Source of the DNA: Acidobacteriota bacterium
GTDB lineage: Bacteria > Acidobacteriota > UBA6911
NCBI GenBank assembly: GCA_012729555.1
Contig: JAAYCX010000020.1
Span: forward strand, 14,908-78,907
Length of the DNA: 64,000 nucleotides
Direction of reading: 5' to 3'
Position 1 is the first letter of the stretch. Every line of letters starts with the position of its first letter. The notes beneath the pieces are model-generated. The model ran no database searches. It was not told the DNA's origin and worked only from the letters and a program-made list of their open reading frames with translations. Positions 2,015 through 59,639 of this stretch are shown piece by piece. The position numbers and the translations under genes were made by a program.

Positions 2015-3220
2015 ATGCCCGACACACGCACCCTCAGCCGGCTCCGGGCCGCGGCGGTGATCGCCGCCGGCGGTACCGGCACGCGCATGAACGCCGGGGT
2101 CCCCAAGCAGTTCCTGGAGATCGCCGGCCGGCCGATCCTCTGCCGCACCGTGGAGCGGATGGCCCTCCTCCCCCAGGTGCGGGCGATCGTCGTGGCGCTG
2201 CCGGCCGCGCACATCCCGCGGGCGGAGGCGCTCCTCGGCGGCCGCGCGCGCTGCGTTGCGGGGGGGGAGACGCGCCAGGACTCGGTCCTCGGTGCCGTCC
2301 GGGCGCTCCCCGCGGACATCGACGTCATCCTGGTGCACGACGCGGTGCGCCCCCTCTGCCCGGAGGAGGTGATGCTGCGGGTGCTCGAAACCGCGTGGGC
2401 CAAAGGGGCCGCGGTCCCCGCCCTCCCCGCGACCGACACCATCGGGCGCGTCTCCAGGCGCGGGCGGGTGCTCCGGACGCCGCCGCGCGCGGAGCTCTAC
2501 GCGATCCAGACGCCGCAGGGGTTCCACGCCGCGCTCCTCAGGGAGGCGCTCGAGCGCGCCGAGGCGGAGGGGTTCCAGGGGACCGACGAGTCCTCGGTGG
2601 TGCGCCGGGCGGGGCACGCGGTCTGGGTGGTCCCCGGCTCCCCCGACAACCTGAAGATCACCCGCCCGCTCGACCTGGAGATCGCCGGGCGGCTGCTCGG
2701 GAAGGAGGGGGCCGTGAACGGACCGGAAATGCGCGTCGGGCAGGGGATCGACTACCACCGCCTGGCCACCGGGCGCCGGCTGGTCCTGGGGGGGGTGGAG
2801 ATCCCTTTTGAAAAGGGGCTCGAGGGGCATTCGGACGCCGACGTGCTCCTGCACGCCGTCTGCGACGCGCTCCTGGGCGCGGCCGGGATGGGCGACATCG
2901 GGCGCCTCTTCCCCGACACCGACCCCGCCTGGCGCGGGCGCGCGAGCCTCTTCTTCCTGGAGGAGGTGGGCCGCCGCGTCGCCGCCGCAGGGTGGCGCGC
3001 GGTGAACGTCGACGCCACGCTCGTGCTCGAGAGGCCGAAGATCGCGCCGCACGCGGCCGCGATGCGGCGCCGCATCGCCGCGGCCCTGGGACTCGGCGAG
3101 GGGGCCGTCAGCGTCAAGGCGACGACGAGCGAGGGGATGAACGCCGAGGGGCGCGGCGAGGGGGTGTCGGCGCAGGCGGTCGCCCTCCTCGCCCGCGCCC
3201 CGGCACCTGTCACGGGATGA
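2015..3220 (+). CDS. ispDF: bifunctional 2-C-methyl-D-erythritol 4-phosphate cytidylyltransferase / 2-C-methyl-D-erythritol 2,4-cyclodiphosphate synthase (IspD-IspF fusion)
   Basis: N-terminal half with IspD glycine-rich motif AAVIAAGGTGTRM; C-terminal half with IspF motifs GIDYHRL...GHSDADVLLHAV...DIGRLFPDTDP; single 401-aa ORF. Confidence 0.9.
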   Translation: MPDTRTLSRLRAAAVIAAGGTGTRMNAGVPKQFLEIAGRPILCRTVERMALLPQVRAIVVALPAAHIPRAEALLGGRARCVAGGETRQDSVLGAVRALPADIDVILVHDAVRPLCPEEVMLRVLETAWAKGAAVPALPATDTIGRVSRRGRVLRTPPRAELYAIQTPQGFHAALLREALERAEAEGFQGTDESSVVRRAGHAVWVVPGSPDNLKITRPLDLEIAGRLLGKEGAVNGPEMRVGQGIDYHRLATGRRLVLGGVEIPFEKGLEGHSDADVLLHAVCDALLGAAGMGDIGRLFPDTDPAWRGRASLFFLEEVGRRVAAAGWRAVNVDATLVLERPKIAPHAAAMRRRIAAALGLGEGAVSVKATTSEGMNAEGRGEGVSAQAVALLARAPAPVTG

Positions 3221-3224
3221 GACC

Positions 3225-22951: not shown

Positions 22952-24355
22952 GTGAAAACAGCTTCCCCGAACGCCGACTGGGCCGCGATCTTCCGCGGGC
23001 GACGCGACCGGATCCGGGCCCGGACCGGAGGCGGCCCGATCCTCTGGCTGGGGCACGCGCCCCAGCCGCGCAACTACGCCGCCAACACCTACCCCTTCCG
23101 GCAGAATTCCCATTTCCTCTACTGCACCGGGCTGGCCGAACCGGACCTCGCCCTCCTCTCGCTGCCGGAAGCGGGGCGCGACATCCTCTTCGGCGACGGG
23201 GCGAGCCTCGACGACATCGTCTGGACCGGCCCGCGCCCCTCGCTCGAGGAGCTGGCGGCCGCGGCCGGCATCGACGACGTCCGCCCGGCGGAGAGCCTCC
23301 GGGGAGTCCTCGACGAGGCGCGGCGGCAGGGGCAGCCCGTCCACTACCTCCCCCCCTACCGGCACTCCTCGGTCTACGCCCTCTCGCGCCTGCTCGACAT
23401 CCCGATGGAGGAAGTGGGGGGGCGCGCCTCCTCCCTCCTGATGGAGCAGGTGGCGATCGAGCGGAGCGTCAAGGGCCCCGAGGAGGTGGCCGAGATCGAG
23501 GAGGCGCTCGGGATCACCGGCCGGATGCACCGCGCGGCGATGGCGGCGGCGCGCCCCGGGATGAAGGAAAGCGAGCTGGCGGGCCTGATCCAGGCGATTG
23601 CCCTCGCCGAAGACCGCGCCCAGGCCTACGACCCGATCGTGACGGTGCACGGGGAGGTGCTGCACAACCACTCCTACGACAATGTCCTCGCCGCGGGGGG
23701 GCTGGTGCTCAACGACTCCGGGGCGGAGTCCCCGATGGGCTACGCTTCGGACATCACCCGCACCTTCCCCGTCTCCGGGCGCTTCTCGCCGCTCCAGGCC
23801 GACCTCTACCGCGCCGTGCTCGGGACGCAGCGGGAGGCCATCGCCATGATCCGCCCCGGCGTCTCCTACCGCGAAGTCCACCTCGGCGCCTGCCGCCGCC
23901 TGGCCGAAGCGCTCCGCGGCCTGGGGCTGATGAAGGGGGACCCCGCGGCCGCGGTCGAGGCGGGGGCCCACGCGCTCTTTTTGCCGCACGGGATCGGCCA
24001 CATGCTCGGGCTCGACGTGCACGACATGGAGGACCTCGGGGACGTGGTCGGGCACGGAAAGGAGAAGCGCCCGGGTCAGTTCGGGCTCAACTACCTGAGG
24101 CTCAGCCGCCCGCTCGAGGCGGGGTTCGTGCTGACGGTGGAGCCGGGGGTCTACTTCATCCCCGCCCTCATCGAGCGCTGGCGCGCCGAAGGGCTCCACC
24201 GGGAATTTCTCGACTACGACCGGATCGCCCCCCTGGCCGGCTTCGGGGGGATCCGCACCGAAGACGACGTCCTGGTCACCCCCGAAGGGGCCCGCGTCCT
24301 GGGCCCCCCGGTCCCGAAGACGGTCGAGGAGGTGGAGGAGGCGTGCGCCCGATGA
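22952..24355 (+). CDS. pepP: Xaa-Pro aminopeptidase (M24B family)
   Basis: GTG start 22952; M24 metal-binding segments (HGIGHMLGLDVHD, VEPGVYF) and the AMP_N domain. Confidence 0.85.
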   Translation: MKTASPNADWAAIFRGRRDRIRARTGGGPILWLGHAPQPRNYAANTYPFRQNSHFLYCTGLAEPDLALLSLPEAGRDILFGDGASLDDIVWTGPRPSLEELAAAAGIDDVRPAESLRGVLDEARRQGQPVHYLPPYRHSSVYALSRLLDIPMEEVGGRASSLLMEQVAIERSVKGPEEVAEIEEALGITGRMHRAAMAAARPGMKESELAGLIQAIALAEDRAQAYDPIVTVHGEVLHNHSYDNVLAAGGLVLNDSGAESPMGYASDITRTFPVSGRFSPLQADLYRAVLGTQREAIAMIRPGVSYREVHLGACRRLAEALRGLGLMKGDPAAAVEAGAHALFLPHGIGHMLGLDVHDMEDLGDVVGHGKEKRPGQFGLNYLRLSRPLEAGFVLTVEPGVYFIPALIERWRAEGLHREFLDYDRIAPLAGFGGIRTEDDVLVTPEGARVLGPPVPKTVEEVEEACAR

Positions 24356-24933
24356 AGGCGGTGTGCGTCTACTGCGGCTCGAGCGCCGGCACCGGCGCAA
24401 AATACCGGGAAGCCGCGCGCACCCTGGGCCGCACGCTGGTCCGGCAAGGCCTCGAGCTGGTCTACGGGGGGGCGCGGGTGGGACTGATGGGGGAGCTGGC
24501 CGACGCCGTGCTCGCTTCGGGAGGAAGGGTCACCGGCGTCATCCCGGAAGCCTTCGCCGCGCGGGTGGCGCACGGGGGCCTCACCGGGCTCGAGATCGTC
24601 GGCGGCATGCACGAACGCAAGCAGAGGATGTTCGACCTCTCCGACGCCTTCATCGCCCTCCCCGGCGGGTTCGGGACCCTGGAGGAGCTGACGGAACTCC
24701 TGACGTGGGGGCAGCTCGACTTTCACCGGAAACCGTGCGGCCTTCTCAATGTTTCGGGCTTCTACGACCCGCTGCTGGCCTTTCTGGATCACGCCGTGCG
24801 GGAGGGCTTCATCAAGGCGGCGCACCGCCGGATGCTTTTCGCCTCGGAGGACTCCGAAGCCCTGCTCGAGCATTTCGGTTGCTACGACGCCCCGAAGACC
24901 GATAAGTGGTATAATCGGCCGATCGATTCCTGA
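24352..24933 (+). CDS. LOG-family cytokinin riboside 5'-monophosphate phosphoribohydrolase
   Basis: Motifs VCVYCGSS, GGxGxMG-like (GGARVGLMG) and PGGFGTLEEL; ATGA overlap with pepP. Confidence 0.85.
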   Translation: MKAVCVYCGSSAGTGAKYREAARTLGRTLVRQGLELVYGGARVGLMGELADAVLASGGRVTGVIPEAFAARVAHGGLTGLEIVGGMHERKQRMFDLSDAFIALPGGFGTLEELTELLTWGQLDFHRKPCGLLNVSGFYDPLLAFLDHAVREGFIKAAHRRMLFASEDSEALLEHFGCYDAPKTDKWYNRPIDS

Positions 24934-24937
24934 AGGC

Positions 24938-26230
24938 ATGATCCGAAACAGCGGATTTTCAAGAATAACCATAGAGGGGAAAGTGATTACGCTTATTGAG
25001 GCCCTGAATTTCCGTTCCCTCAGGTACGTGCGCCAGAGCCTTGGCGGATTTCACGTCCTGATCGGACCCAATGCCAGCGGAAAGACCACTTTCCTGGATG
25101 TTCCCGCCTTCCTCGGCCGGCTCGTATCCGACGGCCTGGAATCGGCCGTCGGCGAGCGCACGGCGAATTTCCAGGATCTTGTATGGCGCCGTGAGGGGCA
25201 GAGATTCGAACTCGCCATCGAGGCGGCGATACCGGCAAAACTCCGGAAGACGGGGGGCAACGGGGATTTCGATACCATTCGCTACGAAGTCGCCGTCGGG
25301 GCCCATCCGCAAACGGAGGAGTTGTCGATACTGGCGGAAAGCGTTCTGCTCAGGAATGCCCCGGTCGCCGAACCTCCCCAGAGAGACTTTTTTCCTTTCC
25401 TGCGGACGCCCCCCAATACGATCCTGTCGCCGAAATCCTCCCGGGGCTCAAAAACCGTTATCCGGAAGGTAGCTAAAGGCAACGACAACTTTTACGACGA
25501 AACGGGGAAAGGCTGGGATCATTCCTTCAAACTTGGCCCGATGAAGAGCGCCCTGGGCAACCTCCCGGAAGACGAATCCAGATTCCCGGTTTCAAGCTGG
25601 CTCAAGGGGTTCCTGATCAACGGTCTGCAACAGATCATCCTCAACAGCCTGCTCATCCGGCGGGCCAGCCCGCCCGGACAAATCCGGGGATTCCGGCCGG
25701 ATGGCTCCAACCTCCCCTGGGTGATTTCCGAGCTCGAAAAAAAGGGTTCCCCTGTCCTGGGGGAATGGATCGCCCACCTGCGGACGGCCCTGCCCGATCT
25801 CGAGGGCATCCGTACCGTCGAGAGGGCGGATGACCGGCACCGTTACATGATGTTGAGGTACCGGGACGGGCTGGAAGTCCCTTCATGGATGGCGTCCGAC
25901 GGGACGCTCCGGCTGCTGGCATTGACACTGCCCGCGTATCTTCCGGAATTCAGGGGCGCCTACCTGATCGAGGAGCCGGAAAACGGCATCCATCCGCGCG
26001 CCGTGGAGACCCTGTTCCAGTCGCTCTCCTCCGTCTACGACGCCCAGATTCTGGTGGCCACCCACTCCCCCGTGATTTTGAGCATCGTCCGGCCGGAGGA
26101 TGTGCTCTGCTTCGCCAAAACAGAAGAGGGGGCCACCGATATCGTGCGCGGCAGCGAGCATCCGGCCCTCGCGGAATGGCGGGGGGAGACCAACCTGGGC
26201 GTCATCTTCGCCGCCGGAGTTCTGGGATGA
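24938..26230 (+). CDS. cytosolic ABC-type ATPase of the AAA_21 / OLD-like family
   Basis: Walker A GPNASGKTTFLD, signature-like SDGTLRLLALTL, Walker B AYLIEEPENGIHP, H-loop VATHSP; no TM segments. Alternative start GTG 24983 is preceded by GAGGGGA; lower GC than the flanks. Confidence 0.8.
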   Translation: MIRNSGFSRITIEGKVITLIEALNFRSLRYVRQSLGGFHVLIGPNASGKTTFLDVPAFLGRLVSDGLESAVGERTANFQDLVWRREGQRFELAIEAAIPAKLRKTGGNGDFDTIRYEVAVGAHPQTEELSILAESVLLRNAPVAEPPQRDFFPFLRTPPNTILSPKSSRGSKTVIRKVAKGNDNFYDETGKGWDHSFKLGPMKSALGNLPEDESRFPVSSWLKGFLINGLQQIILNSLLIRRASPPGQIRGFRPDGSNLPWVISELEKKGSPVLGEWIAHLRTALPDLEGIRTVERADDRHRYMMLRYRDGLEVPSWMASDGTLRLLALTLPAYLPEFRGAYLIEEPENGIHPRAVETLFQSLSSVYDAQILVATHSPVILSIVRPEDVLCFAKTEEGATDIVRGSEHPALAEWRGETNLGVIFAAGVLG

Positions 26231-26886
26231 AGGCCGAGGCGCCCGGCAAGGACCTCATCGCCCTGGTCGCCGACAAGAATATGGAACACGCCCTGCGGGG
26301 CCTGCTGAATCGTCACGAATCTCTGGGAATCCGTCCACTAAGAGAAAAAAGGGACTACGACATATTCGTACACCCGCACAGGGATCCGGGCTGCCTGGCA
26401 AAATCCACCGAATTCCTTCGGCCCTGGCAGCGGACCTATCGCCGGGCCCTGGTGATGTTTGACCGGGAAGGCTGTGGCCGGGAAGCCCAATCGCGCCTCG
26501 AACTCGAAAGCGAGCTCGAGCAGCAGCTGGCGCGATCGGGATGGGACGAACGGGCGGCGGTGGTGATCATCGACCCGGAGCTGGAAAACTGGGTGTGGAG
26601 CAGCTCGCCTCTCGTGGATCGGGCGCTGGGCTGGACAGGACGGTCCCCCGACCTCCGCCAATGGCTCCTGGATGAAGGCTTTCTGAAATCAGCCGCGGAG
26701 GCGAAGCCCGCGCCCCCCAAACCGGCCATGGATCGAGCCCTGAGGATGGGGAAAAAACCGCATTCATCCTCGCTGTTCCAGCAGCTTGCCGAGACGGTTT
26801 CGCTTTCGGGATGCACCGACGACGCCTTCCTGAAGCTCAGGCAGATCCTGATCGGCTGGTTTCCGCTGTCGGCGTCGGAAAATTGA
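26227..26886 (+). CDS. uncharacterised 219-aa partner of the AAA_21 ATPase (possible divergent Toprim/RloB/DUF4276-like effector)
   Basis: ATG 26227 overlaps the ATPase stop (ATGA); alternating hydrophobic-strand and acidic motifs (LIALVADKNMEH, ALVMFDREG, VVIIDPELENW); no confident family by eye; low-GC DNA. Confidence 0.55.
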   Translation: MKAEAPGKDLIALVADKNMEHALRGLLNRHESLGIRPLREKRDYDIFVHPHRDPGCLAKSTEFLRPWQRTYRRALVMFDREGCGREAQSRLELESELEQQLARSGWDERAAVVIIDPELENWVWSSSPLVDRALGWTGRSPDLRQWLLDEGFLKSAAEAKPAPPKPAMDRALRMGKKPHSSSLFQQLAETVSLSGCTDDAFLKLRQILIGWFPLSASEN

Positions 26887-26914: not shown

Positions 26915-27907
26915 TCAGCGGTTGGGGATCCCCATCGCCGCGCGCACCTCGCGAAGGAGGGGCGCGGCGACCCGGCGCGCGCGCTCCGCGCCGCGGCGCA
27001 GGACCTCGGCGATATACTCCGGCTGGCTCTCCAGTTCGCGCCGGCGCGCGCGCACCGGCTCGAACCGGCGCATGTAGAGGTCGAAGATCGCCTCCTTCAC
27101 CTCGCGGTAGCCGAGACCCCCGCTCGTGAAGCGGTCGCGCCAGTACTCCCGCTCCTCCTCCGTGCAGAAGAGTTTCAGGACCGCGTAGAGCATGCTCCTG
27201 TCCGGGTCCTTCGGCTCCTTGAGGGAGGCGGAATCGGTGACGATGGAGAAGATCTGCTGGCGCACCTCCTCCTCGGGGGCGAACAGTTCGATGGTGTTGT
27301 TGTACGACTTCGACATCTTCCGGCCGTCCCGCCCCGGGACCACCGCCACGCTCTCCGGGATGTAGGCCTCGGGGACGGTGAGCAGCTCCCCGTAGAGGTG
27401 GTTGAAACTCCCGGCGATGTCGCGCGTCACCTCGATGTGCTGCTTCTGGTCCTGGCCGACGGGGACGCGGTTGGCGCGCACGATGAGGATGTCGGCCGCC
27501 TGCAGGACCGGGTAGGCGAACAGGCCGTGGTCGGAGGAGAGCCCCTGCGCGATCTTGTCCTTGTAGGCGTGGCAGCGCTCGAGCAGCCCCATCGGGGTCA
27601 CCGTGGTCAGCAGCCACTGCAGTTCGCACACCTCGGGCAGGTCGCTCTGCACGTAGATGGCCGCCAGCTCCGGGTCGAGCCCCAGGGCGATGTAGTCGGC
27701 CGCGGTGCTGCGGGTCAGCCCAAGCAGCCGCCCCGGCTCGCGCACCGAGGTCAGCGCGTGGTAGTTCGCCAGGAAGTAGTAGCACTCGTGCCCTTCCCGG
27801 ATGAACTGGACGAACTGCTGCACCGCCCCGAAATAATTGCCGAGATGGAGGTTTCCCGAGGGCTGGATGCCCGAGACAATGGTCAGCTTCCTGGTCGCGT
27901 CGGTCAT
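26915..27907 (-). CDS. trpS: tryptophan--tRNA ligase
   Basis: Class I motifs (SGIQPSGNLHLGNY as HIGH; KMSKS as KMSKS); start chosen at MTDATRKL (27907); the ORF is open up to 27979. Confidence 0.85.
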   Translation of the reverse strand: MTDATRKLTIVSGIQPSGNLHLGNYFGAVQQFVQFIREGHECYYFLANYHALTSVREPGRLLGLTRSTAADYIALGLDPELAAIYVQSDLPEVCELQWLLTTVTPMGLLERCHAYKDKIAQGLSSDHGLFAYPVLQAADILIVRANRVPVGQDQKQHIEVTRDIAGSFNHLYGELLTVPEAYIPESVAVVPGRDGRKMSKSYNNTIELFAPEEEVRQQIFSIVTDSASLKEPKDPDRSMLYAVLKLFCTEEEREYWRDRFTSGGLGYREVKEAIFDLYMRRFEPVRARRRELESQPEYIAEVLRRGAERARRVAAPLLREVRAAMGIPNR

Positions 27908-28105
27908 GGTGTTCCTTGTCGTTCCCCTTTGAGTTGGTGCGCAATCGAAGATAGTGTCATTGCCCGCCCCCTTTTTCAACGAAGAGTTTGCCGGCGGGGC
28001 GGAGATTGTGGAACCCCGCGGGGGTGCGGGGCGTATCGCCCTTCGTTGACTCGCTGGTGCATAATGCCTATACTTTTCCGAGGGAATGAAGTATCCGGAG
28101 GGTAG

Positions 28106-31204: not shown

Positions 31205-32689
31205 ATGGATATAGAGTATCGGCCGGGCGCTTTTTCCGACACCGCCTGCGACCTGCTGGCGTATCCCGTTTTTGAAGAGGAGGCCGGGGACTTCGCCCCG
31301 CTCGAGCCGCTGGACACAAGGGTCCGCGGCGCGGTCCGGAGGGCGCTGGAATCGGGCGAGTTCAAACCGGAACCCTGCCGGACCTGCACCCTCTTCCCCG
31401 CCGGTGGGCTGCGGGCGCGCCGCCTGCTGCTGGTGGGGGCGGGAAAGAAAGGGCGCTTCGACCCCGCCGCGCTGCGCGACGTCGCCGGCACCGCGGTGCG
31501 GGCGGCCCGGGCGGCCGCCTGCCGGACGATGGCCCTCCTCGGCCGGGGGGACCACCCGCCGGGGCTCGCGGCCCGGGTGGCGGCCGAGGGGGCGCTCTAC
31601 GCCGGCTACGAGGCCGATATCTACAAGACGCGCGACCGCGAGCGGCGGGAGCTCGAGCGGTTCTACGTCCTCCTGCCCGGCGCCCCCGCGCGCGCCGCGG
31701 GCGAGGCGGCCGAAGGGATCCGGCGCGGCGTCATCACGGGGGAAGCCACCAATTTCGCCCGCACCCTGGCCAACGAACCGGCCAATATCCTGACCCCCGC
31801 GCGCCTGGCCGAGCGCGCCCGGGAGATCCCCGGCCTCGCCGTGCGGACCCTGGACCGCGAAGAGATGGAAAAGATGGGGATGCACGCGCTCCTGGCCGTC
31901 AGCCGCGGCAGCGCCGAGCCCCCGGGCCTCATCGTCCTGGAAATCCCCGGGGAGAAGGGGAAGCGGCCGGGCCGTGGTCCGCTGCACGCCCTGGTGGGCA
32001 AGGGCGTCACCTTCGACAGCGGGGGGATCTCGCTCAAGCCCGCGGACAAGATGGAGGAGATGAAGGGGGACATGGCCGGGGGCGCCGCGGTCCTCGGGGC
32101 CATGGCCGCCCTGGCCAGGCTCAAGCCCCGGGTCCCCGTCATCGGGCTGGTCCCGGCGGTCGAAAACCTTCCCGGCGGCCGGGCCACCCGGCCGGGGGAC
32201 GTGGTCCGATCGTACCTGGGCAAGACGGTGGAGATCATCAACACCGACGCCGAGGGGCGCCTCATCCTGGCCGACGCGCTGGCCTACGCCCGGACCCTGG
32301 GCGCCGCCCGTCTCCTCGATGTCGCCACCCTGACCGGGGCCTGCATGGTCGCCCTCGGGCGCGTCAACGCCGGGATGATGGGGACGGACCAGAAGACGAT
32401 GGACCTGCTGCTCCGGAACCGCCGCGTCACCGGGGAGGGGCTCTGGCAGCTCCCGATGGACGACGCCTACCGGAAGGCGATCCGGAGCGAGATCGCCGAC
32501 GTGAAGAACATCGGCGACCGCTGGGGGGGGGCCATCACGGCGGCCAAGTTCCTCGAGGAGTTCACCGAGGACACCCCCTGGGTTCACCTCGACATCGCGG
32601 GGATGGACCTGGAGACCGACGGGCGCCCCTTCGCCTGCAAGGGGGCCACGGGGTTCGGGGTGAGGACGCTCGTCAGCTGGCTGGAATAG
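31205..32689 (+). CDS. pepA: leucyl aminopeptidase (M17)
   Basis: M17 signature NTDAEGRLILADALAYA and catalytic KGVTFDSGG. Confidence 0.85.
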   Translation: MDIEYRPGAFSDTACDLLAYPVFEEEAGDFAPLEPLDTRVRGAVRRALESGEFKPEPCRTCTLFPAGGLRARRLLLVGAGKKGRFDPAALRDVAGTAVRAARAAACRTMALLGRGDHPPGLAARVAAEGALYAGYEADIYKTRDRERRELERFYVLLPGAPARAAGEAAEGIRRGVITGEATNFARTLANEPANILTPARLAERAREIPGLAVRTLDREEMEKMGMHALLAVSRGSAEPPGLIVLEIPGEKGKRPGRGPLHALVGKGVTFDSGGISLKPADKMEEMKGDMAGGAAVLGAMAALARLKPRVPVIGLVPAVENLPGGRATRPGDVVRSYLGKTVEIINTDAEGRLILADALAYARTLGAARLLDVATLTGACMVALGRVNAGMMGTDQKTMDLLLRNRRVTGEGLWQLPMDDAYRKAIRSEIADVKNIGDRWGGAITAAKFLEEFTEDTPWVHLDIAGMDLETDGRPFACKGATGFGVRTLVSWLE

Positions 32690-51268: not shown

Positions 51269-52810
51269 TCAGGGAGTCTTCTTCTGCGCCTTCGCCGCCT
51301 CCATCATGCGGGTGAGCGGCCCGATATCGAAGCGGGTGCGGCTGTGCATCCCGCCGTCCCTCATGTCGACCTCCACCGTCATCTTCCCCGACAGCGGGGG
51401 GAGCGCCCCGGCGCCGGCACCCGGGGGCGCCAGCGTCCGGATCCCGGCGAAAAGCGCGCCGAGGTCGATCTCCATCAGGGAGGTGGGGCCCGCGGCGGGC
51501 ACGGGCGCCAAGGCGGCCGTGCGCGCCGCCAGGTCGGCGATCCCGGCGTCGCTCGAGGCGAAGAGGAGGAGGTCGCCCGAGGCCGCCATCCTCATCTCGA
51601 GAGGGACCTTTTCGAGCGGGTTGTCCCCCGCCCCGGTCCCGGGGAGCGCCCCGGGGTTCATCCGCAGCCCCACGACCCGCAGCCCGGCCACGGTGCTATC
51701 GGCCGTCCGCTCGTAAAGCGCTCCCGCCGGCGCCTGATCCTCTGCCGCGGCCAGCGCCGCCACCCGCCCGGCGTAGCGGTCCAGGAAGGGGAGATAGGTT
51801 TTGTCGATATACGCGTCGCCGTCGACCCCCGGGCGCAGGACGTAGATCCCCCTCATCGCGATCCCCTCCCGGTCGATCCGCATCCCGCCGGACATTTCGC
51901 CGGTGAACGCTTCGGCCAGCGCCGAGAGTTCCCCCGGATCGAAGCCGAGCCGGCGGTAGAGGCGCCCGTAAACCAGCTCGGCCAGTTCCATCATCCCCGA
52001 CATCTCCGGGGCGCGCGAGCGGAAGCGCAGCGGCATGTCGGCGGCCACCTCGCCCAACCGCATCTCCCCGCCGGGGTCGACGAAGAGGCGCCCGAGCGCC
52101 GTGTCCCGGCCCGCCTCGACGTCCAGGACCAGCGACAGGGCCTCCCCCTCCACCTCCATCCCCAGGCGCAGCGTCTCCGCCTGCCCGAGGAGGCCCAGCA
52201 TGTCGCCCATCATGGCCCGGATCTCCTCGGGGGGGATCGCGGCGGCCCCGGGCGCCCGAGGAGCCGGCTCCGCTTCCCCGATCTTCGCGAGCGCCGCGTC
52301 GAGCTGGGGCTTCATCCGGGCCGCCATGAGGGCGGCGGGAATCTCGAGCACCAGGTTGGCCGGCGGCCGGACGGCCGAGGCCCGCACGAGCGCCTGCTCG
52401 AGGGCCGGGTCCACGGCCTGGGGCGCCCCCGGCCTGGGCGGGAAGGAGAGAAGGTAGTACCCTTCCCGCGCGGCGGCGCCGAAGGCCGCCTGGAACTGCG
52501 GGTTGGGGGCGGCGTACGGGACCAGCGCCACCAGCGCGGGGCTCGGCCCCCCTTCGAGCACCCCGGCCACCACCGGGCGCGCGGGGTCGAGCCACCCGGT
52601 CCCCCCGACGAGGGCGCGCAGCATCCCCACCTGGGCCCGGACGGGCGAATCGGCCGGGGTCAGGGCCTCCACGTCCCGGATCAGCCGCTCCACGTCCCCG
52701 ATTTTGACGAGGAGCGGGGGCTCCGCGGCCCCGGCCGCGGGGAGGAAGACTCCTGCGGCCAGGGTGAAAAGCAGGCAAAGGACGGCGCACCGGCATCTCT
52801 GGTCAGGCAT
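51269..52810 (-). CDS. hypothetical exported Ala/Gly/Pro-rich protein
   Basis: Signal peptide AVLCLLFTLAAGVFLPAAGAA; no recognisable domain; AT-rich promoter region at 52811-52910. Confidence 0.5.
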   Translation of the reverse strand: MPDQRCRCAVLCLLFTLAAGVFLPAAGAAEPPLLVKIGDVERLIRDVEALTPADSPVRAQVGMLRALVGGTGWLDPARPVVAGVLEGGPSPALVALVPYAAPNPQFQAAFGAAAREGYYLLSFPPRPGAPQAVDPALEQALVRASAVRPPANLVLEIPAALMAARMKPQLDAALAKIGEAEPAPRAPGAAAIPPEEIRAMMGDMLGLLGQAETLRLGMEVEGEALSLVLDVEAGRDTALGRLFVDPGGEMRLGEVAADMPLRFRSRAPEMSGMMELAELVYGRLYRRLGFDPGELSALAEAFTGEMSGGMRIDREGIAMRGIYVLRPGVDGDAYIDKTYLPFLDRYAGRVAALAAAEDQAPAGALYERTADSTVAGLRVVGLRMNPGALPGTGAGDNPLEKVPLEMRMAASGDLLLFASSDAGIADLAARTAALAPVPAAGPTSLMEIDLGALFAGIRTLAPPGAGAGALPPLSGKMTVEVDMRDGGMHSRTRFDIGPLTRMMEAAKAQKKTP

Positions 52811-52910: not shown

Positions 52911-53813
52911 CTAAAATTTCGCGATTTCAATCTTACGCATTTGCATCATGTTGGCGAACGCGTGCGGTTTGTTCATCAGTTCTTCCATGTTCGCCGGGAC
53001 CACCTGCCAGCTGACACCGAATCTGTCTTTGCTCCAGCCGCACTGCTCCGCCCCCGGTACCGCCGAGAGTTTTTCCCAGAAGTAATCGATCTCGGCCTGA
53101 TCCTGACACGCGATCGACAGGGAAATCGCTTCGTTGAAGTTGAAGTCATGCTCGACCCCGCTGTCCATCGCCGCGAACCATTGGCCTGCCAACGTGAAGT
53201 CGGCGAACATCAGCGACCCTGACCTGGCCGGACCGGTATCGTCCGCATAACGGGCGAGCGTGCCCAACCTGGCGTCTTCGAATACGGACAGATAATGATG
53301 GATCGCTTCCTCTGCGCGGTTGTTGTTTTCGCCTGAGAACATCAGCGACGGTATGACGAAGGGACGCGGCTCGCCGGCGGGGTCGGTCAAAATCAGCTGC
53401 CACGTCAGCCCGTAGCGGTCCTTGACCCAGCCATAGCGTTTGCTGAAGGGATAGGCCCCCAACGGCATGAGGGCCTCGCCGCCGTCGATGAGTCTGTTCC
53501 ACAGCTCCTCGAGGTGCTCGCCCGCCCGCCCGTCACGCGACGGGTCGAAATTCAGCATGAACGAAATCGATGGGTTGAATGCAAACTCCGGCCCGGCGTT
53601 GATGGCCACAAACCGAAACCCCCCGACTTCGAAGTCGACGGTCAGCACCTTGCCGGCCAGCCCGAGCTGAAACGCCGCCAACCCCTCCTCGGCGCTTTTC
53701 GGGTAATAAATAGTGGAACCCACCTTGCCCTCCGGAAACGCCGACGCGTAAAAACCGGCCGCTTCCTGGGCATTGCCATCGAACCACAAATTCGGAGTGA
53801 TTTTCTGTTGCAT
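52911..53813 (-). CDS. tandem-domain VOC/PhnB-like (3-demethylubiquinone-9 3-methyltransferase-domain) protein
   Basis: Two PhnB-like halves (ITPNLWFDGNAQEAAGFY... and FTLAGQWFAAMDSG...); ATG 53813 preceded by AAGGAGG; lower GC. Confidence 0.6.
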   Translation of the reverse strand: MQQKITPNLWFDGNAQEAAGFYASAFPEGKVGSTIYYPKSAEEGLAAFQLGLAGKVLTVDFEVGGFRFVAINAGPEFAFNPSISFMLNFDPSRDGRAGEHLEELWNRLIDGGEALMPLGAYPFSKRYGWVKDRYGLTWQLILTDPAGEPRPFVIPSLMFSGENNNRAEEAIHHYLSVFEDARLGTLARYADDTGPARSGSLMFADFTLAGQWFAAMDSGVEHDFNFNEAISLSIACQDQAEIDYFWEKLSAVPGAEQCGWSKDRFGVSWQVVPANMEELMNKPHAFANMMQMRKIEIAKF

Positions 53814-53870
53814 GACGCCCTCCTCCTTCATGCTCCTGTCACTCCATGATACCAGATGCGGGATCAGCTC

Positions 53871-53899
53871 TTTGCCCTGGTCCGTCCCCGTTTTTTTAT
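53871..53899. repeat. copy A of 28/29-nt repeat TTTGCCCTGGTCCGTCCCCGTTTTTT(T)AT
   Basis: Identical core to copy B at 55612..55639; overlaps the hipA stop codon (53896-53898). Confidence 0.65.
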
Positions 53900-55149
53900 C
53901 CTGATGCGGCCTTCAGATCTTCATGTTCGAACGCGGACGACATGCGGTCGATCTCAGCCGGTGTAAGGCCGAGCTTCCTCGCCTCCCGACGCCATGAGGA
54001 AACCGCCCGCCCCACCTGCTTCGCGATCGCATGGGCTTCGTCCTCGCATAGTTCGAAATAGCCGGAGACCTGGAGCGCCAGCTTCAGTGACGCGGTGCCG
54101 TCGTAGAGATCGATAGCGGTGGTCAGAATGCGCCGTTTAATGTCGGTGGGCACGGGATTGAGGTCGTATGCCGGCGACAGCCGCCAACCGGAGGAACCGG
54201 CCCATAGAAAGCCGTGGTTGCGCAGATGGTCGTCCGTATTCGAAATCAGGACGTTGAACACAATCCTCCGCCAGAGCGCGTGCATGTCTTCCTTCGGTTC
54301 CGCGCCATGCTGACGGAGAACATCGACGAATTCCAGGTAACTCCGCGCCTCGTTGTCTTTGGCGTCGAGCATGCTCATCGCGGATAAAAACGGCAGGCGC
54401 GTTTCCTGCTCCCGGTCGAAACGGCGCAGTAAAAGAACGGGCCTGTCGGCCACGGTTTCAAGACGCCAGGTCGGAACCGGGATGCCTGCCTTCGCGGCCA
54501 GCGTCAGGGCCACAGCCTCCCACAGGACCGTATTCACCTCGTCTCCCTTGTCCGGAAACTTGGCAATGGCGAGATGGCCGTCGCGGTCCCGGACCGAGGC
54601 TTTGGGCCGGGCGCCGCCGAGCGATGAGCCGGGCGCGAGGAGCAGCCGCAAATCCTCATCACTGTCCGTGTCGCTCGAAACATGCTCCGCCGCGGATAGA
54701 AGTCGCGGCAGCTCCCATAGTGGCGGAATCCTCCTCTGTCCCTGCCCGGCCAGAAACGGCCCCCCTTCCCGGTCGGCGAAACGCAATGCTCCCTGGCGCG
54801 CTTCATCGTCCACCATGAGGAGATAGTCGATTTCCCCGAGGGTGCGCGGCGTCTCTCCCTGAAGCTCGGCGCGCCTTCGCTCGGCGCGTCGCATCAGGAC
54901 GCGTCCCCATCGATCAGGGGCGGAGTCGCCGATGGATCCGAAAAGCGCTTTATCGGATGGTGTGTGAAACGGTCCCGGCCCGAGGGTCAGGGCAGGCTCG
55001 AGGGAAAAGCGATCGGAATGAGTGAGCCAGCTCTTGTCGTATTCAAAGGTGGCGCTCTCCCTGTCCTTGCGCATGCGCGCCCACAGGCGCCCCACCAGGT
55101 GAGGAATGCCTTGCAGGTCCACGAAGACCAGCACTTCTCTGTCCATCAA
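53896..55149 (-). CDS. hipA: HipA-family type II toxin (Ser/Thr kinase)
   Basis: HipA N-terminal domain and C-terminal catalytic motif ISNTDDHLRNHGFLW...SPAYDLNP. Confidence 0.85.
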   Translation of the reverse strand: MMDREVLVFVDLQGIPHLVGRLWARMRKDRESATFEYDKSWLTHSDRFSLEPALTLGPGPFHTPSDKALFGSIGDSAPDRWGRVLMRRAERRRAELQGETPRTLGEIDYLLMVDDEARQGALRFADREGGPFLAGQGQRRIPPLWELPRLLSAAEHVSSDTDSDEDLRLLLAPGSSLGGARPKASVRDRDGHLAIAKFPDKGDEVNTVLWEAVALTLAAKAGIPVPTWRLETVADRPVLLLRRFDREQETRLPFLSAMSMLDAKDNEARSYLEFVDVLRQHGAEPKEDMHALWRRIVFNVLISNTDDHLRNHGFLWAGSSGWRLSPAYDLNPVPTDIKRRILTTAIDLYDGTASLKLALQVSGYFELCEDEAHAIAKQVGRAVSSWRREARKLGLTPAEIDRMSSAFEHEDLKAASG

Positions 55150-55514
55150 CGGATACCCCCGTCTTTTGGCTTGCCGGGATTCCGCCGACGCGAAGGCCGG
55201 ATGCGCAGAGGGAGACGCTCCTCTTCAAGTTCCCGTCCGACGGCATCGTGCCGGGGGTCGGCGACATCGGCAAGCCGGTCGACCATTCCCAGGGCGAAAA
55301 GAACGGTGGCCCAGGTGCCCAGCGAGACGCCGGGATCCCCCTTCTCCACTTTGTTCAGGGTCGTGCGGCTGATGGACGCACGCTCCGCCATGACCGCGAC
55401 GGGGATGCGGCGCCGCCGCCGGGCGTCACGGACATCGTGCCCCAGCTTGCGGAGGGCACGCCTCACCGGTATCGGTGCCCCCGAAAATGATCGCCTGTCG
55501 CCTTTATCGTCCAT
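55146..55514 (-). CDS. hipB: HipB-like XRE-family HTH antitoxin
   Basis: HTH_XRE segment (MAERASISRTTLNKVEKGDPGVSLGTWATVLFALG); overlaps the hipA start by 4 nt. Confidence 0.75.
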   Translation of the reverse strand: MDDKGDRRSFSGAPIPVRRALRKLGHDVRDARRRRRIPVAVMAERASISRTTLNKVEKGDPGVSLGTWATVLFALGMVDRLADVADPRHDAVGRELEEERLPLRIRPSRRRNPGKPKDGGIR

Positions 55515-55515
55515 T

Positions 55516-55551
55516 ATAATAGTCCTTAATAAATAGAAGGTACACTATTAT
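55516..55551. promoter_or_regulatory. inverted repeat ATAATAGT-N20-ACTATTAT in hipBA leader (candidate HipB operator)
   Basis: Arms at 55516-55523 and 55544-55551, immediately upstream of the hipB start on the minus strand; a TTGACA-like box lies further upstream on that strand. Confidence 0.3.
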
Positions 55552-55611
55552 GGACGTTCTGTCAATGGAGGCGCGACCGCACCGGAAGAAGATCCTCTGT
55601 TTTTTCAGTTA

Positions 55612-55639
55612 TTTGCCCTGGTCCGTCCCCGTTTTTTAT
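55612..55639. repeat. copy B of the 28-nt repeat TTTGCCCTGGTCCGTCCCCGTTTTTTAT
   Basis: Overlaps the stop codon (55636-55638) of the cytochrome gene; identical core to copy A. Confidence 0.65.
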
Positions 55640-56766
55640 TGGAGGGCGCCGAAGAAAACGATCTTTTCGCCGGCCAGGAGGGCGTCGCGCTCCTTCTCCC
55701 ACTCGAAGTCGCGCGTCCCCTCCGGCAGGGGGCGGACGCGGACGGCGATGATCGAAAAAGAGCTCCGGCCGCCGTTATGGTCGTACTCCTCGTTGAAGGC
55801 GTACTCGGGGGCCACGCTCTTTTGACATTCGGCGCCGGCGTTTTTCGGCAGGTCGGGGGGCGAGGGGACGAACTGGGGAACGACCAGGCGCAGCGGGCCG
55901 GTGCCGACGATGCGGCCGCTCGCGGGGTCCAGGTGCGCCGGCTCGATCTTCCGGCCGTTCTCCTCGAAGGCGAGCATGACCTTCATCGAAGGGAGCGCCC
56001 GGCCGGGGTCGAGGCCCGCAGCGTTGTAATTGACCCAGCCGCAGGCGCCCAGCGCTTTCTTGTCGAGCCCCGGCACCGGCCTGGCCTGCGCCCACTCGCG
56101 CCGGAGCTCCTCGAGGGTGAACGTCCCCTCGAACCCGTCGACCGAGATGAAATCGACGCTCTCCGCCCCGGGCGCGAGCCCGATCGCCTCGAGGAGCGCG
56201 TACACGGAGTTGCCCCGGTACTGGTTGTAGAAGTCCCCCTGGCGGTTGTGGGAGGTGTTGAGAAACACGGTGTGGCCGACGACGGGGGAGAGGGCGCGGA
56301 GTTCCCGCCCGGAGTAGACCCGGTGGGGGGCGAGGGCGGCCCCGGGGCGGCTCGAAGCCTCCCCCGGGAGGGTGCCGGCCAGCAGTTCCGCCTCGTTCGA
56401 GACGCCGTCGCCGTCGGCGTCCCCCCCGGCGATCTTCCGCAGGGCGGCGACGCCGCGGCCGGCGGCCAGGTACTCGGCGCCGAACCGGGTGAGGGTGGCC
56501 ACGGCCGGACGGCCCCCCCGGACGTGGACCGCGTGGCAATAGCCGCAGTGGTTCTCGACCCGGCTCCCGGAGCCTTCCTCGACCCGCCCGCTCCGGTGGC
56601 AGGGGGCGCACGAATCGGACGCGCCCCCCTTGAGCTGCGGGTAGGCCGCCAGCACCGCTTCGACGTCGCGGTCGTCCGCATGCCCCTTGTAGGCCGCGTA
56701 GCCCGTAACCAACAACAGCCCGAGTCCCAGTGAAGCGGCCGCCAGCCACCGGTGGTTATGCGCCAT
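55636..56766 (-). CDS. membrane-anchored di-heme c-type cytochrome fused to a sulfite-oxidase-like (Mo-oxidoreductase-type) domain
   Basis: Two CxxCH motifs (CAPCH, CGYCH); C-terminal region has a PLRLVVP-type motif as in Mo-cofactor oxidoreductase domains; start taken at ATG 56766 (MAHNHRWLAAASLGLGLLLV). Confidence 0.55.
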   Translation of the reverse strand: MAHNHRWLAAASLGLGLLLVTGYAAYKGHADDRDVEAVLAAYPQLKGGASDSCAPCHRSGRVEEGSGSRVENHCGYCHAVHVRGGRPAVATLTRFGAEYLAAGRGVAALRKIAGGDADGDGVSNEAELLAGTLPGEASSRPGAALAPHRVYSGRELRALSPVVGHTVFLNTSHNRQGDFYNQYRGNSVYALLEAIGLAPGAESVDFISVDGFEGTFTLEELRREWAQARPVPGLDKKALGACGWVNYNAAGLDPGRALPSMKVMLAFEENGRKIEPAHLDPASGRIVGTGPLRLVVPQFVPSPPDLPKNAGAECQKSVAPEYAFNEEYDHNGGRSSFSIIAVRVRPLPEGTRDFEWEKERDALLAGEKIVFFGALQ

Positions 56767-56942
56767 GGCTCTCCATCCCTGTTCGTTTGAATTTGTCATC
56801 CGGAACGCTCCCTGCTCTTTTTGACGGATATTCACGTCCGCCGGAAGTGTACCACGAAGGGGCGGTTTCCCCTGTGCCCACAAATGGGGTATAATAAGAC
56901 TGGTTGTTAGACTAGTTGATACTTTGCGGGAGGGAAGCGGCC

Positions 56943-57188
56943 GTGAAGACCATAGGGGCTTTTGACGCCAAAACGAACCTCAGCCGGCTGCTGAGGGAGG
57001 TGGAAGTCGACCGGGAGGTGTTTGTCATCGAACGCAACCGGAGGAAGGTGGCTACCCTGGTTCCCTACCGCGAAGGGAACCGGGCGGCATCGGAATCGAT
57101 CGTGGAGCGTTTTCGCCGGCTCCGCGCCCGCGGCGGAAGCGACGCCACCCCGGTCAAAGAGCTCATTTCGGAAGGGAGAAAGCGATGA
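56943..57188 (+). CDS. Phd/YefM-family antitoxin (VapB-like)
   Basis: 81 aa from GTG 56943 (VKTIGAFDAKTNLSRLLREVEVDREVFVIERNRRKVATLVP...), a typical Phd N-terminus; TTG 56916 is an alternative start; 4-nt overlap with vapC. Confidence 0.65.
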   Translation: MKTIGAFDAKTNLSRLLREVEVDREVFVIERNRRKVATLVPYREGNRAASESIVERFRRLRARGGSDATPVKELISEGRKR

Positions 57189-57607
57189 GGGAGGAGACGG
57201 TGGTGGTGGACTGCTCCATCTCCGCTTCGTGGTACCTCAGGGACGAAGCCTCCCCCCGCGCTGAAAACGTTCTGGCGCGCATTGCCGATGGGACCTTTCA
57301 TGCCCTCGTCCCCTCGCTCTGGTGGTACGAAAACGTCAACGTCATCAAATCGGCGCAGCGCCGCGGGAGACTGCGCCCCCGGGATGCCGCCACCGCGCTC
57401 TTTCTCCTCCGGGAGTTGCCGCTGGAAACCTGGGATCCCGACAAGCAGGGGATCGCGGGGCTGCTCCAGTTCACGCTCGCGCATAATCTTTCCGCCTACG
57501 ACGCCGCTTATCTCCACCTGGCCGTTTCCACCGGGGCCACGCTGTTCACCGCGGATTCGGACCTTCTGGCCCTGAGCGATCGGTACCCCTGCATTTCCGG
57601 AAGGTAA
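57185..57607 (+). CDS. vapC: PIN-domain ribonuclease toxin VapC
   Basis: PIN acidic residues (VVVDCS...; ...FTADSDL) and 140-aa length; ATGA overlap with the antitoxin. Confidence 0.8.
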   Translation: MREETVVVDCSISASWYLRDEASPRAENVLARIADGTFHALVPSLWWYENVNVIKSAQRRGRLRPRDAATALFLLRELPLETWDPDKQGIAGLLQFTLAHNLSAYDAAYLHLAVSTGATLFTADSDLLALSDRYPCISGR

Positions 57608-57790
57608 ACCTCTTATTCTCAGTGCCTTACTTCGGTTCGGCGTATTGATGTAGACCCTTTCCGTCTTCATTGCTGACAACCATGCAGGTGATCCGAATCT
57701 CTTCACCCGTTCTTTTGATGAACCCTTTGCTTTCGAGAAAGGAAACCTCCTGCTCGTATTTTTCCCGGCTCCACTGGTTGCTATTCATAT

Positions 57791-58054
57791 ATGAAGCACA
57801 GCCGGAAAACGGATATCGGCGCCGAGTTGCTTCGTCACTTGAGTGAAAAACAGGTGCCCGGCACCGTTTATTCCTATCGGCCCGCCGATTTGCTCTACTA
57901 TGCAGATAGCGGCGGGAGAAAGACGGGCATGAGTGCAAGGTTCGGCGCGGGACTACGCAATTTTCGGGAGACCTACCAAAGGCTGGTGAACAGCTGGATT
58001 TGGATTGATAATGCCGGGGCGGAACCCATCATTATCGAAGCGGGAGACAACTGA
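57791..58054 (+). CDS. hypothetical 87-aa protein (first of overlapping small ORF pair)
   Basis: ATG 57791 in roughly 50% GC DNA; stop TGA overlaps the next ATG (TGATG); no family recognised. Confidence 0.4.
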   Translation: MKHSRKTDIGAELLRHLSEKQVPGTVYSYRPADLLYYADSGGRKTGMSARFGAGLRNFRETYQRLVNSWIWIDNAGAEPIIIEAGDN

Positions 58055-58281
58055 TGGCCAGCAGGATTATCGGTTCGAAGGATCCGGATATCCTTTCCTC
58101 CATAAAAGCGCTGCGTCGGGCGGCACGTCGGGCGCTTCAGATCGGTCTGGAGACAGGTACCCCGGTCTACGTGATGAAGCGGGGCAAAATCGTCGATCTC
58201 ACCCTGAGTTACCGCGGTAAAGCCAAGGGCAAATCCAAAACCGGGGATCGTGCAGCCGTCGTTGCTCGAGCCAAAAAATAG
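58054..58281 (+). CDS. hypothetical 75-aa basic protein (second of overlapping small ORF pair)
   Basis: ATG 58054 with GGGAGA 9 nt upstream; Lys/Arg-rich C-terminus; no family recognised. Confidence 0.4.
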   Translation: MASRIIGSKDPDILSSIKALRRAARRALQIGLETGTPVYVMKRGKIVDLTLSYRGKAKGKSKTGDRAAVVARAKK

Positions 58282-58337
58282 GCGCCCGCCGCTGTTCGAA
58301 CTGCCCCCTGCCCCCCTTGACTACCATATCTTCATGA

Positions 58338-59639
58338 TTACTCTGGTCCATCCCCGTTTATCAGGGAGGCGAGGCCTTCGGGCTCCTCGATGCGGACGGT
58401 GACGAGGCGGTTGGGGGGGAGCGGGTCGGGGACGCGGGCGGCGAGGTAGTTGCCGGTGAGGACGCGGGTGCCGTCCGGGCCCGCCGCGAGGGTGACGGCC
58501 GGCAGGGTGCGCCCCGTGAAGCGGCGGCGGAAGGCCGCGCTCTTGGCGCGGCCGATGGCGAGCACGCGCTCGAGCCGGCGGGCGAGCGCGCGCGGCGGGA
58601 CCCGGCCGGGGAGCGCGAACGCCTCCGTCCCCTCCCGGGGGGAGAAGGGGAAGACGTGCAGGTAGGCCAGGGGCAGCTCTTCGAGCAGCGCGCAGCCGGC
58701 GGCGAAATCGTCCTCCGTTTCCCCGGGGAAGCCGACGATGACGTCGGTGCCGACGGCGGCGTCGGGGAGCGAGCGCACGATCTCCCCGACGAGCTCCCGG
58801 TACCGGGCCGCGCCGTAGGGGCGGTGCATGAGGCGGAGGATCCGGTCGCACCCGCTCTGGAGCGGAATGTGAAAGTGGTGCGCGATGACGGGGCTCGACG
58901 CGGCGAGCCGGAGGATGCCGGGATCGAAGTCCATCGGTTCGATGCTGCTGAGGCGCACGCGGCCGATGCCGGGGATCCGGACGACCCGTTCGAGCAGCTC
59001 CGCGAGGCCCGGGTGACCCTCCTGCTTGCGGCCGTAGGCGCCCAGGTGCACCCCGGTGAGCACGATCTCACGGAACCCCGCCGCCGTGAGCGCACTGATT
59101 TCGGCCAGCACCGCTTCGGGGGGCGCGCTGCGGCCGGGGCCGCGCACCTTGGGGACGATGCAGTAGGCGCACCCGGAGTCGCACCCGTCCTGGATCTTCA
59201 CCAGGGGGCGGGTCTTCCCCCCGGTCCGCCCCATCGGGGGGAGGGGGCAGTCCGCGGCCGCGTCGACGGGGGACCACGAGACGCGGGCCGGCCCGGAGGC
59301 CGCGGTTTCCTTCAGCAGTTCGGGAAGGCGCGCGCGTTCGGCGTTTCCCACCACGAGGCGGACGCCGGGGAGGGCGGCGACCCCTTCGGGGTCGCGCTGG
59401 GCGTAGCAGCCCAGGACGACGATGCGGGCCCCGGGGTTGCCGCGGTGCAGGCGGCGCACGACCTGGCGCACCTCGCGGTCGGAGCGGTGGGTGACGGTGC
59501 AGCTGTTGACCACGATCAGGTCGGCGGCGCGCCAGTCGCCGCTTTCGTCCATGGGGAGCGCGGCGAGGGTCGCCCGGATGCCGGCGCTGTCGGCCTGGTT
59601 GGCGCGGCAGCCGAAGGTCCGGATGTGAAAGCTAGGCAT
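58338..59639 (-). CDS. MiaB/RimO-family radical SAM methylthiotransferase (MtaB-like)
   Basis: MTTase N-domain (IRTFGCRANQADS), radical SAM CDSGCAYC, and a TRAM-like C-terminus. Confidence 0.8.
   Translation of the reverse strand: MPSFHIRTFGCRANQADSAGIRATLAALPMDESGDWRAADLIVVNSCTVTHRSDREVRQVVRRLHRGNPGARIVVLGCYAQRDPEGVAALPGVRLVVGNAERARLPELLKETAASGPARVSWSPVDAAADCPLPPMGRTGGKTRPLVKIQDGCDSGCAYCIVPKVRGPGRSAPPEAVLAEISALTAAGFREIVLTGVHLGAYGRKQEGHPGLAELLERVVRIPGIGRVRLSSIEPMDFDPGILRLAASSPVIAHHFHIPLQSGCDRILRLMHRPYGAARYRELVGEIVRSLPDAAVGTDVIVGFPGETEDDFAAGCALLEELPLAYLHVFPFSPREGTEAFALPGRVPPRALARRLERVLAIGRAKSAAFRRRFTGRTLPAVTLAAGPDGTRVLTGNYLAARVPDPLPPNRLVTVRIEEPEGLASLINGDGPE
58343..58361. repeat. diverged copy C of the island repeat core (CTGGTCCATCCCCGTTTAT) inside the mtaB-like 3' end
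   Basis: Matches CTGGTCC.TCCCCGTTT.AT of copies A and B; here it encodes the C-terminal residues INGDGPE of the methylthiotransferase. Confidence 0.45.

Follow-up and report, generated by a model that had tools for sequence, protein, structure and literature searches.

The closest described relatives of the repeat considered here are short repeats linked to transposases of the Y1 (HUH) type. Di Nocera, De Gregorio and Rocco (2013, BMC Genomics 14:522; PMC3733652) set RAYTs (tyrosine transposases associated with REPs), which go with palindromic GTAG repetitive extragenic palindromes (REPs), apart from the TIRYTs, whose genes are flanked by terminal inverted repeats (TIRs) that are not REPs and of which several share the sequence GGGGWSAS. 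In some genomes these TIRs make up moderately abundant dispersed families that occur as singles, dimers and clusters, and acidobacterial examples are part of the set (PMC3733652). The 64,000-nt stretch analysed here (the window; contig JAAYCX010000020.1, positions 14,908 to 78,907) comes from an uncultured Acidobacteriota population that is common in anaerobic digesters. A first-pass annotation had noticed in it a 28-nt direct repeat within an island of toxin-antitoxin (TA) genes beside the tRNA methylthiotransferase gene mtaB, and had offered as one reading that the copies are scars of serial insertions, that is, att-like core duplications of a target in the mtaB 3' end. We consider it likely that the repeat is instead part of a TIRYT-associated, REP-like family of interspersed ~45-nt units lying in a variable toxin-antitoxin region. 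A pattern that resembles integration scars would then be explained by a lineage-specific interspersed repeat, which averts its annotation as an island with att sites, and an uncultured acidobacterial clade would be added to the little-studied TIRYT/TIR systems.

Direct reading of the window confirmed the three copies on one strand: TTTGCCCTGGTCCGTCCCCGTTTTTTTAT at 53871-53899 (copy A), TTTGCCCTGGTCCGTCCCCGTTTTTTAT at 55612-55639 (copy B) and CTGGTCCATCCCCGTTTAT at 58343-58361 (copy C). Read in the sense of the minus-strand genes, the unit consists of an A-rich leader, the 13-nt core GGGGACGGACCAG and an AT-rich RGYAAA tail, ~45 nt in all, and copies A and B are alike over about 36-38 nt as ATAAAAAA(A)C GGGGACGGACCAG GGCAAAnnnCTGA. 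Unit A (53864..53899, minus strand) has the leader ATAAAAAAAC (53899-53890), the core at 53889-53877 and the tail GGCAAAGAGCTGA (53876-53864). Unit B (55584..55639, minus strand) has the leader ATAAAAAAC (55639-55631), the core at 55630-55618 and the tail GGCAAATAACTGAAAAAACAGAGGATCTTCTTCC (55617-55584), and it is kept at the orthologous position in three relatives (L015, L005 and L012; L numbers denote loci from other contigs). In unit C (58293..58361, minus strand) the leader is ATAAAC, the core is GGGGATGGACCAG (58355-58343) and the tail runs to about 58293. A fourth, decayed copy (unit D, 57627..57645, minus strand; ACGCCGAACCGAAGTAA versus AACGGGGACGGACCAGAGTAA) lies between vapC and the small open reading frames (ORFs), as seen by alignment with the intact copies of L015, L005 and L012. 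The overlap with gene ends reported in the first-pass annotation also holds: the hipA stop TAA (53896-53898) and that of a cytochrome-like gene (55636-55638) lie inside the leaders of units A and B, and unit C is translated as the MtaB C-terminus N-G-D-G-P-E-stop. Unit D gives a 53-aa ORF its last codons (YAEPK-stop), and in L015 an indel in the A-run causes hipA to be read through the unit, so that its product has 427 aa versus 417 aa. On the plus strand, 53871-53888 and 55612-55629 read F-A-L-V-R-P, DNA that in many genomes also encodes the histone-deacetylase motif FALVRPPGHH and that gave rise to about half of the false matches in the pattern scans.

Searching the window for the 17-nt core with up to three mismatches returned copies A, B and C and one three-mismatch site at 32376-32392, against a chance expectation of 0.44. 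An exact GGGGACGGACCAG is found there on the plus strand (32380-32392), inside the M17 leucyl aminopeptidase gene pepA (31205-32689), where it is read G-T-D-Q. By a rough estimate an exact 13-mer is expected by chance ~0.01 times in 64 kb; nevertheless, this one has neither the A-rich leader nor the AT-rich tail, which makes a coding coincidence probable.

In sister species the repeat is linked to a Y1/HUH (IS200-type) transposase gene (L045:5603-6538, L039:199-951), whose product matches Pfam Y1_Tnp at 5.6e-9 and contains the HUH (HVH) and YxxxN..VRAG motifs. Two sense units lie ~140-190 nt upstream of the transposase start and antisense units lie downstream in L045 and L039, and the same inverted flanking is present in L050 and L057. 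As in the TIRYT systems, the gene is thus bracketed by non-palindromic inverted repeats, and their distance from it varies little. Its neighbours in three species (DNA 89-94% identical) are AMP-ligase genes, or an adjacent 667-aa gene, on one side and nrfH-nrfA on the other, and a homologue of 64% identity has similar neighbours. Lower-GC Acidobacteria (L055, L056) have homologues of 65% and 62% identity with a variant core, GGGGTCGGACC, on their flanks; its copies cluster around the transposase gene and are found nowhere else in these two loci. A seemingly conserved chromosomal position of the transposase gene, its flanking by inverted repeats and a repeat variant that switches with the transposase lineage are likenesses to the REP/REPIN-RAYT systems (Nunvar 2010; Bertels and Rainey 2011, PMC3116915; Ton-Hoang 2012), as is the nature of the units as a short extragenic family found mainly downstream of genes.

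The enzyme itself points to the TIRYTs. Its sole NCBIfam match is the REP-associated tyrosine transposase profile NF047646, aligned in full with an E-value of 1e-18, but at 65-67 bits it stays under the 80-bit equivalog cut-off, and the E. coli RAYT is 20% identical (E 0.02). Blastp against the sequences in Additional file 5 of Di Nocera et al. gave sml_1152 (36%, 1e-28), aba_2776 (34%, 2e-27) and sml_4509 (37%, 1e-26). In these comparisons the transposase is nearer to the TIRYTs than to the RAYTs, and it is best classed as TIRYT type rather than RAYT type, although it shares just 34-37% of its residues with the published TIRYTs. Its protein family is large in Acidobacteria, and a structure-database search returned weak matches to the IS608 transposase TnpA (E 0.17). 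In L059 (GCA_900198705.1, FZPS01000081.1, a 2.85-Mb contig), no more than a 2.4-kb stretch about nrfH and the Y1 gene is shared with the otherwise syntenic L057, and the flanks are wholly different; a rearrangement is suggested, or else a chimeric assembly.

Further copies occur well away from mtaB. An exact-pattern scan with GGGGACGGACCAGRGYAAA of 185,579 genomes, one per species, returned 34 stretches. About half of what the genome and metagenome scans returned is coincidental coding sequence, in which the DNA encodes the histone-deacetylase motif FALVRPPGHH or the sarcosine-oxidase motif GMGTDQGK. The others look intergenic, carry the A-rich leader and lie on several contigs of a few Acidobacteriota metagenome-assembled genomes (MAGs): six on five contigs of JAAYAJ01, which is the species with an empty mtaB site, four in CAZWXG01 and two in CAWJKZ01. 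Within an 8-kb locus the 13-nt core is found 4-7 times, in both orientations and with AT-rich flanks, frequently as head-to-tail pairs with a 44-45 nt period. We collected 46 non-redundant core matches with at most one mismatch, 3 of them evidently coding coincidences; the core is essentially unchanged among them, and the flanks of the true copies share only the A-rich leader and the RGYAAA AT-rich tail. In the sister species most units overlap a gene 3' end or follow it closely; they form singles, tandem pairs and clusters, their orientation relative to the neighbouring genes is variable, and at L059 6876 another unit adjoins the rpoD stop. Since at least 13 copies (counted from three stretches) lie on a single metagenome contig of 89.7 kb from the empty-site species, the units form a multi-locus family, and the scans indicate that this family is specific to a clade of uncultured anaerobic-digester Acidobacteria. 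A motif abundant at gene ends irrespective of islands is what the first-pass annotation had named as speaking against its own reading, and this largely applies: in sister species the repeat is found at the ends of genes unrelated to mtaB at several loci, and it flanks a Y1 gene of the REP-associated type.

Two matches outside this clade deserve mention. In L044 (928-990, a Chloroflexota MAG, JAJRVT01) the 13-mer forms a perfect inverted pair within a long hairpin, GCCGGGGACGGACCAG...CTGGTCCGTCCCCGGC, perhaps a REPIN-like relative of the unit from a different phylum. In L046 (1100-1200, a Leptolyngbyaceae MAG) a CRISPR spacer between repeats GTTTCCATTCAATTGATGTCCCCAGCGAG contains the 19-nt pattern, a match that is likely due to chance.

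The dispersed copies thus resemble the TIRs in occurring as singles, dimers and clusters in moderate numbers, with four copies at the mtaB locus of the window, and the repeat starts with GGGG(A/T)CGG, which is close to the published GGGGWSAS. There are differences from the TIRYT systems as well: head-to-tail pairs with the 44-45 nt period are common here, such dimers being reported as rare for REPs, and neither this repeat family nor its host clade is described in the survey (PMC3733652). From the REP/REPIN-RAYT systems the units are set apart by the absence of a stem-loop, of inverted REPIN doublets and of an unpaired GTAG/CGTC tag beside a stem; the GACG that the core contains is not stem-adjacent.

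We propose that the units are non-autonomous elements that are, or formerly were, spread by the Y1 transposase. Spread would occur by single-strand cleavage and joining, with insertion beside A-rich sites at gene ends, and the units would colonise the intergenic 3' ends of a locus that also gathers TA and other accessory genes. It is this preference that would place units at module boundaries. Secondarily, the units may supply short homologies or fragile edges that favour insertions and deletions.

Several observations weigh against this explanation. The Y1 transposase gene was not found within the 64-kb window, so that its presence in the window's own genome is extrapolated from sister species with 95.5% and 93.4% DNA identity at the mtaB locus. 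Because the identities at the transposase locus parallel the distances at the mtaB locus, the data do suggest that both of the sister species with an occupied island carry the gene. The unit is not palindromic and thus does not have the defining feature of classical REPs, and GGGGACGG and GGGGTCGG agree with GGGGWSAS at only 7 of 8 positions. The copy number looks modest and the copies regionally clustered rather than genome-saturating. Moreover, all window copies with AT-rich flanks are confined to the variable region, a non-random distribution for which an intergenic preference accounts only incompletely. Finally, we know of no experiment showing that TIRYT-type enzymes move such repeats.

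How the units relate to mtaB can be judged from five versions of the locus, taken from contigs that encode MtaB relatives. In the window and L001-3 (MtaB 100%), mtaB is followed by a remnant TA pair, vapC-phd, the cytochrome-like gene, hipBA, phnB, a 513-aa gene and a U32 peptidase gene. L015 (MtaB 97%) has the same order, but with a full 173-aa zeta/AAA_33 toxin gene. In L011-14 (MtaB 92%) hipBA-phnB is absent and an additional vapC-phd lies beside the U32 peptidase gene, and in L004-7 (MtaB 91%) an abhydrolase gene takes the place of most of hipA and all of phnB. L008-9 (MtaB 87%) represent the empty site, in which mtaB and a convergent U32 peptidase gene are separated by 146 nt. This empty site already contains two tandem cores 44 nt apart (L008), as do L005 and L012, and compared with these three, exactly 44 nt between the two cores is deleted in the window and L015. 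The mtaB copy that had been described as diverged, unit C, is therefore a fusion of the ancestral tandem pair. Between the first TA pair and vapC, another intact copy is present in L015, L005 and L012, of which the window retains only the decayed unit D.

The GDGPE ending of MtaB, which derives from the same unit, is present in the empty-site relative and in all close relatives and absent from MtaB homologues at about 62% identity; at L067 (MtaB 61% identity), the sole such locus examined, the mtaB end is free of the motif. From this distribution, the unit was acquired once at the mtaB end and is not a target derived from mtaB, and the same observations rule out an origin of copies A and B from ancestral mtaB 3' ends that were displaced. 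Since the copies of the mtaB locus occupy orthologous positions in species whose DNA is about 90-95% identical, they are old. The locus thus offers natural material on the behaviour of such repeats, with old orthologous copies, a fused tandem pair, a within-species duplication and units that supply the stops or last residues of MtaB and other proteins.

It is possible, if improbable, that the units are active cassette boundaries, at which an enzyme acting in trans, either the Y1 transposase or a host recombinase, inserts and excises gene-sized modules. Under this scenario the array downstream of mtaB would be a landing pad, integron-like without attC or IntI. Breakpoints mapped by blastn of the variants against the window are partly in keeping with it. 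At four window junctions a unit adjoins the upstream gene's stop codon. What the empty site lacks, about 58293 to about 51279 and thus the 513-aa gene too, begins at the end of the roughly 50-nt tail of unit C. L012, which lacks 55584 to 52860, loses homology with the window at 55584, so that the hipBA-phnB block begins at the end of the 34-nt tail of unit B. Between L015 and the window the stretch 57937 to 57639 differs, and its right breakpoint is inside the core of unit D. At an unrelated locus, a 525-nt SRPBCC/Polyketide_cyc2 gene downstream of nrfA is present (L050, 12931-13455; L039, about 2941-3540) or absent (L057, 12862-12946; L045; L060) in the precise interval between two neighbouring units, and the 5' edge of the A-leader forms one of the junctions. 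In all, three breakpoints fall at the end of a unit tail or at a leader edge.

However, most breakpoints are off the 13-nt core, lying 34-50 nt beyond a core, within a gene or at a repeat-free site. One example is L005, in which 55098 to 52861 is replaced and hipA contains the left breakpoint. At least six module junctions are free even of degenerate copies (phnB|513-aa, 513-aa|U32, 521-aa|vapC-phd, phd|U32 and the two sides of the abhydrolase gene), and the scan with up to three mismatches found no more AT-flanked copies at the phnB|513-aa, 513-aa|U32, extra vapC-phd or abhydrolase junctions. The repeat does mark several boundaries and the mtaB 3' end, as first noted, but the many junctions free of a unit speak against active cassette boundaries as a general rule. 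Only two or three cases support the cassette scenario, insertion being indistinguishable from deletion in them, genes lie on both strands within modules, and there is no evidence of circular intermediates. We therefore regard it as doubtful that the edges of TIRYT-type units are sites of gene-module insertion and excision and that the mtaB array is a cassette-capture locus needing neither integrase nor attC. If this were true, it would point to accessory genes turning over by a new route, with single-strand HUH enzymes as its drivers.

What the alignments do show is that the copies are substrates of rearrangement and recombine with each other, because in addition to the 44-nt fusion there is a within-species polymorphism, a 123-nt unit duplication between a 553-aa gene and the Mntp gene (L057 16249-16403 versus L060 14730-14761). 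The fallback of the first-pass annotation, a shared recombination or regulatory element, comes close to the picture obtained here. Short-read assemblies are broken by the units: many contigs of the species represented by L057 and L060 stop at repeat clusters, and the start of L082 is at the window's copy A.

The serial insertion scars favoured at the outset are very unlikely. They would account for direct copies in the same orientation, one of which lies in the 3' end of a conserved gene with a lower-GC accessory region downstream. Yet the empty site already has two copies, the distal end of the island has no copy (with up to three mismatches and AT-rich flanks), and the unit also occurs at unrelated loci and around the Y1 transposase gene. 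Nor is a cognate recombinase at hand, since Pfam searches of the island ORFs and ~50 ORFs across the 64-kb window, together with precomputed Pfam matches for 10 kb on each side, revealed no integrase, recombinase or transposase. Among 2.9 million viral contigs there was no exact match to the repeat pattern, by which a phage or plasmid attP was also ruled out. Together with junctions that have no copy and breakpoints that avoid the core, these results contradict att duplications of an mtaB target.

An element acting at the RNA or regulatory level, such as a terminator, a 3'-UTR (untranslated region) stabiliser or a shared transcription-factor site, has just as little to recommend it: the position at gene 3' ends and a T-run after the core on the opposite strand would suit such an element, but neither strand folds into a hairpin beyond shuffled controls (56-101 nt around the copies tested, both strands for A and B; z -0.9 to +1.3), the terminator scan flagged no repeat site, no Rfam family matches the unit, the orientation relative to neighbouring genes varies, and a 13-nt core that is essentially invariant in about 43 copies from several species is atypical of factor-binding sites. 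An intrinsic terminator or RNA family was ruled out by the lack of a hairpin, of a terminator call and of an Rfam match.

Other known repeat systems fit less well. Integron attC sites are imperfect palindromes of 57-141 nt with R''/L'' and L'/R' boxes (RYYYAAC ... GTTRRRY) that fold as hairpins, and CALIN clusters consist of small modules, often TA pairs, that are separated by attC sites without a nearby integrase. The mtaB locus likewise has small modules, often TA pairs, split by repeats of the same orientation with no integrase nearby, but the units are shorter than attC and have neither the imperfect palindrome nor the R''/L''-L'/R' architecture; units also stand singly at ordinary gene ends, and some modules have no unit. 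An attC or CALIN origin was ruled out by the lack of a hairpin and of a core/inverse-core architecture, no inverse-core/core pair being seen in the window sequence. The dif/Xer sites measure 28 nt and comprise two 11-nt arms with partial dyad symmetry around a 6-nt spacer, and dif/Xer modules (IMEX, pdif) were ruled out because direct reading, comparison of copies and folding revealed no dyad symmetry in the unit. The dRS3 repeat of Neisseria is a palindromic, CGTC-tagged repeat that serves as a phage integration target. The dRS3/NIME arrays and minimal mobile elements are comparable in that short repeats form intergenic mosaics between conserved genes with strain-variable gene content, but dRS3, which corresponds to CGTC-1 (PMC3733652), shares neither sequence nor an enzyme relationship with the unit described here.

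Turning to the genes of the island and its flanks, Pfam supports the names given in the first-pass annotation (PhnB/3-dmu-9_3-mt, HipA, HTH HipB, Phd, PIN/VapC, MtaB). The conserved left flank is mtaB (58338..59639, minus strand; UPF0004 and Radical_SAM), whose homologues are named MtaB at source. The remnant TA pair (57791..58281, plus strand) consists of an 87-aa AAA_33/zeta-toxin-like fragment (57791-58054) and a 75-aa ORF (58054-58281), neither of which has a Pfam match in the window. The full-length 173-aa AAA_33/Zeta_toxin gene is seen in L015 (5265-5786), and the corresponding stretch of the window is 57627-58054; in the window the 3' half of the toxin gene is replaced by 298 nt that hold the 53-aa ORF on the opposite strand, and the 75-aa partner ORF is kept. 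The phd-vapC pair (56943..57607, plus strand) matches PhdYeFM_antitox and PIN. The 376-aa cytochrome-like gene (55636..56766, minus strand) has two CxxCH motifs and a host-like codon GC3 and is kept in all occupied variants. The hipB-hipA pair (53896..55514, minus strand; HTH_31 and HipA_C), absent from L012 and truncated in L005, and the PhnB-like gene (52911..53831, minus strand; 3-dmu-9_3-mt by Pfam), absent from both, have a lower GC. The gene for a secreted-looking 513-aa protein (51269..52810, minus strand) has a host-like GC3, marks the distal end of the region absent from the empty site and has boundaries free of the repeat. The region of ~52.8-58.3 kb has a GC of 0.51-0.66 versus about 0.72; the cytochrome-like gene is an exception, as is the 513-aa gene that follows at 51.3-52.8 kb.

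Upstream of hipB (55486-55550) lies an inverted repeat, CCATAATAGT...ACTATTATAATGG, that is probably the HipB operator; in L005, which has lost most of hipA, 64 nt are deleted there as well. Elsewhere in the window, an islet of low GC3 (24749-26886), flanked by the genes for a LOG/lysine-decarboxylase-like protein (24343-24933) and a class I tRNA synthetase (26915-27979), contains no repeat copy; it comprises a 333-aa ORF without a Pfam match and a 493-aa AAA_21 (AbiEii/OLD-type) ATPase ORF, and it could be a small defence islet.

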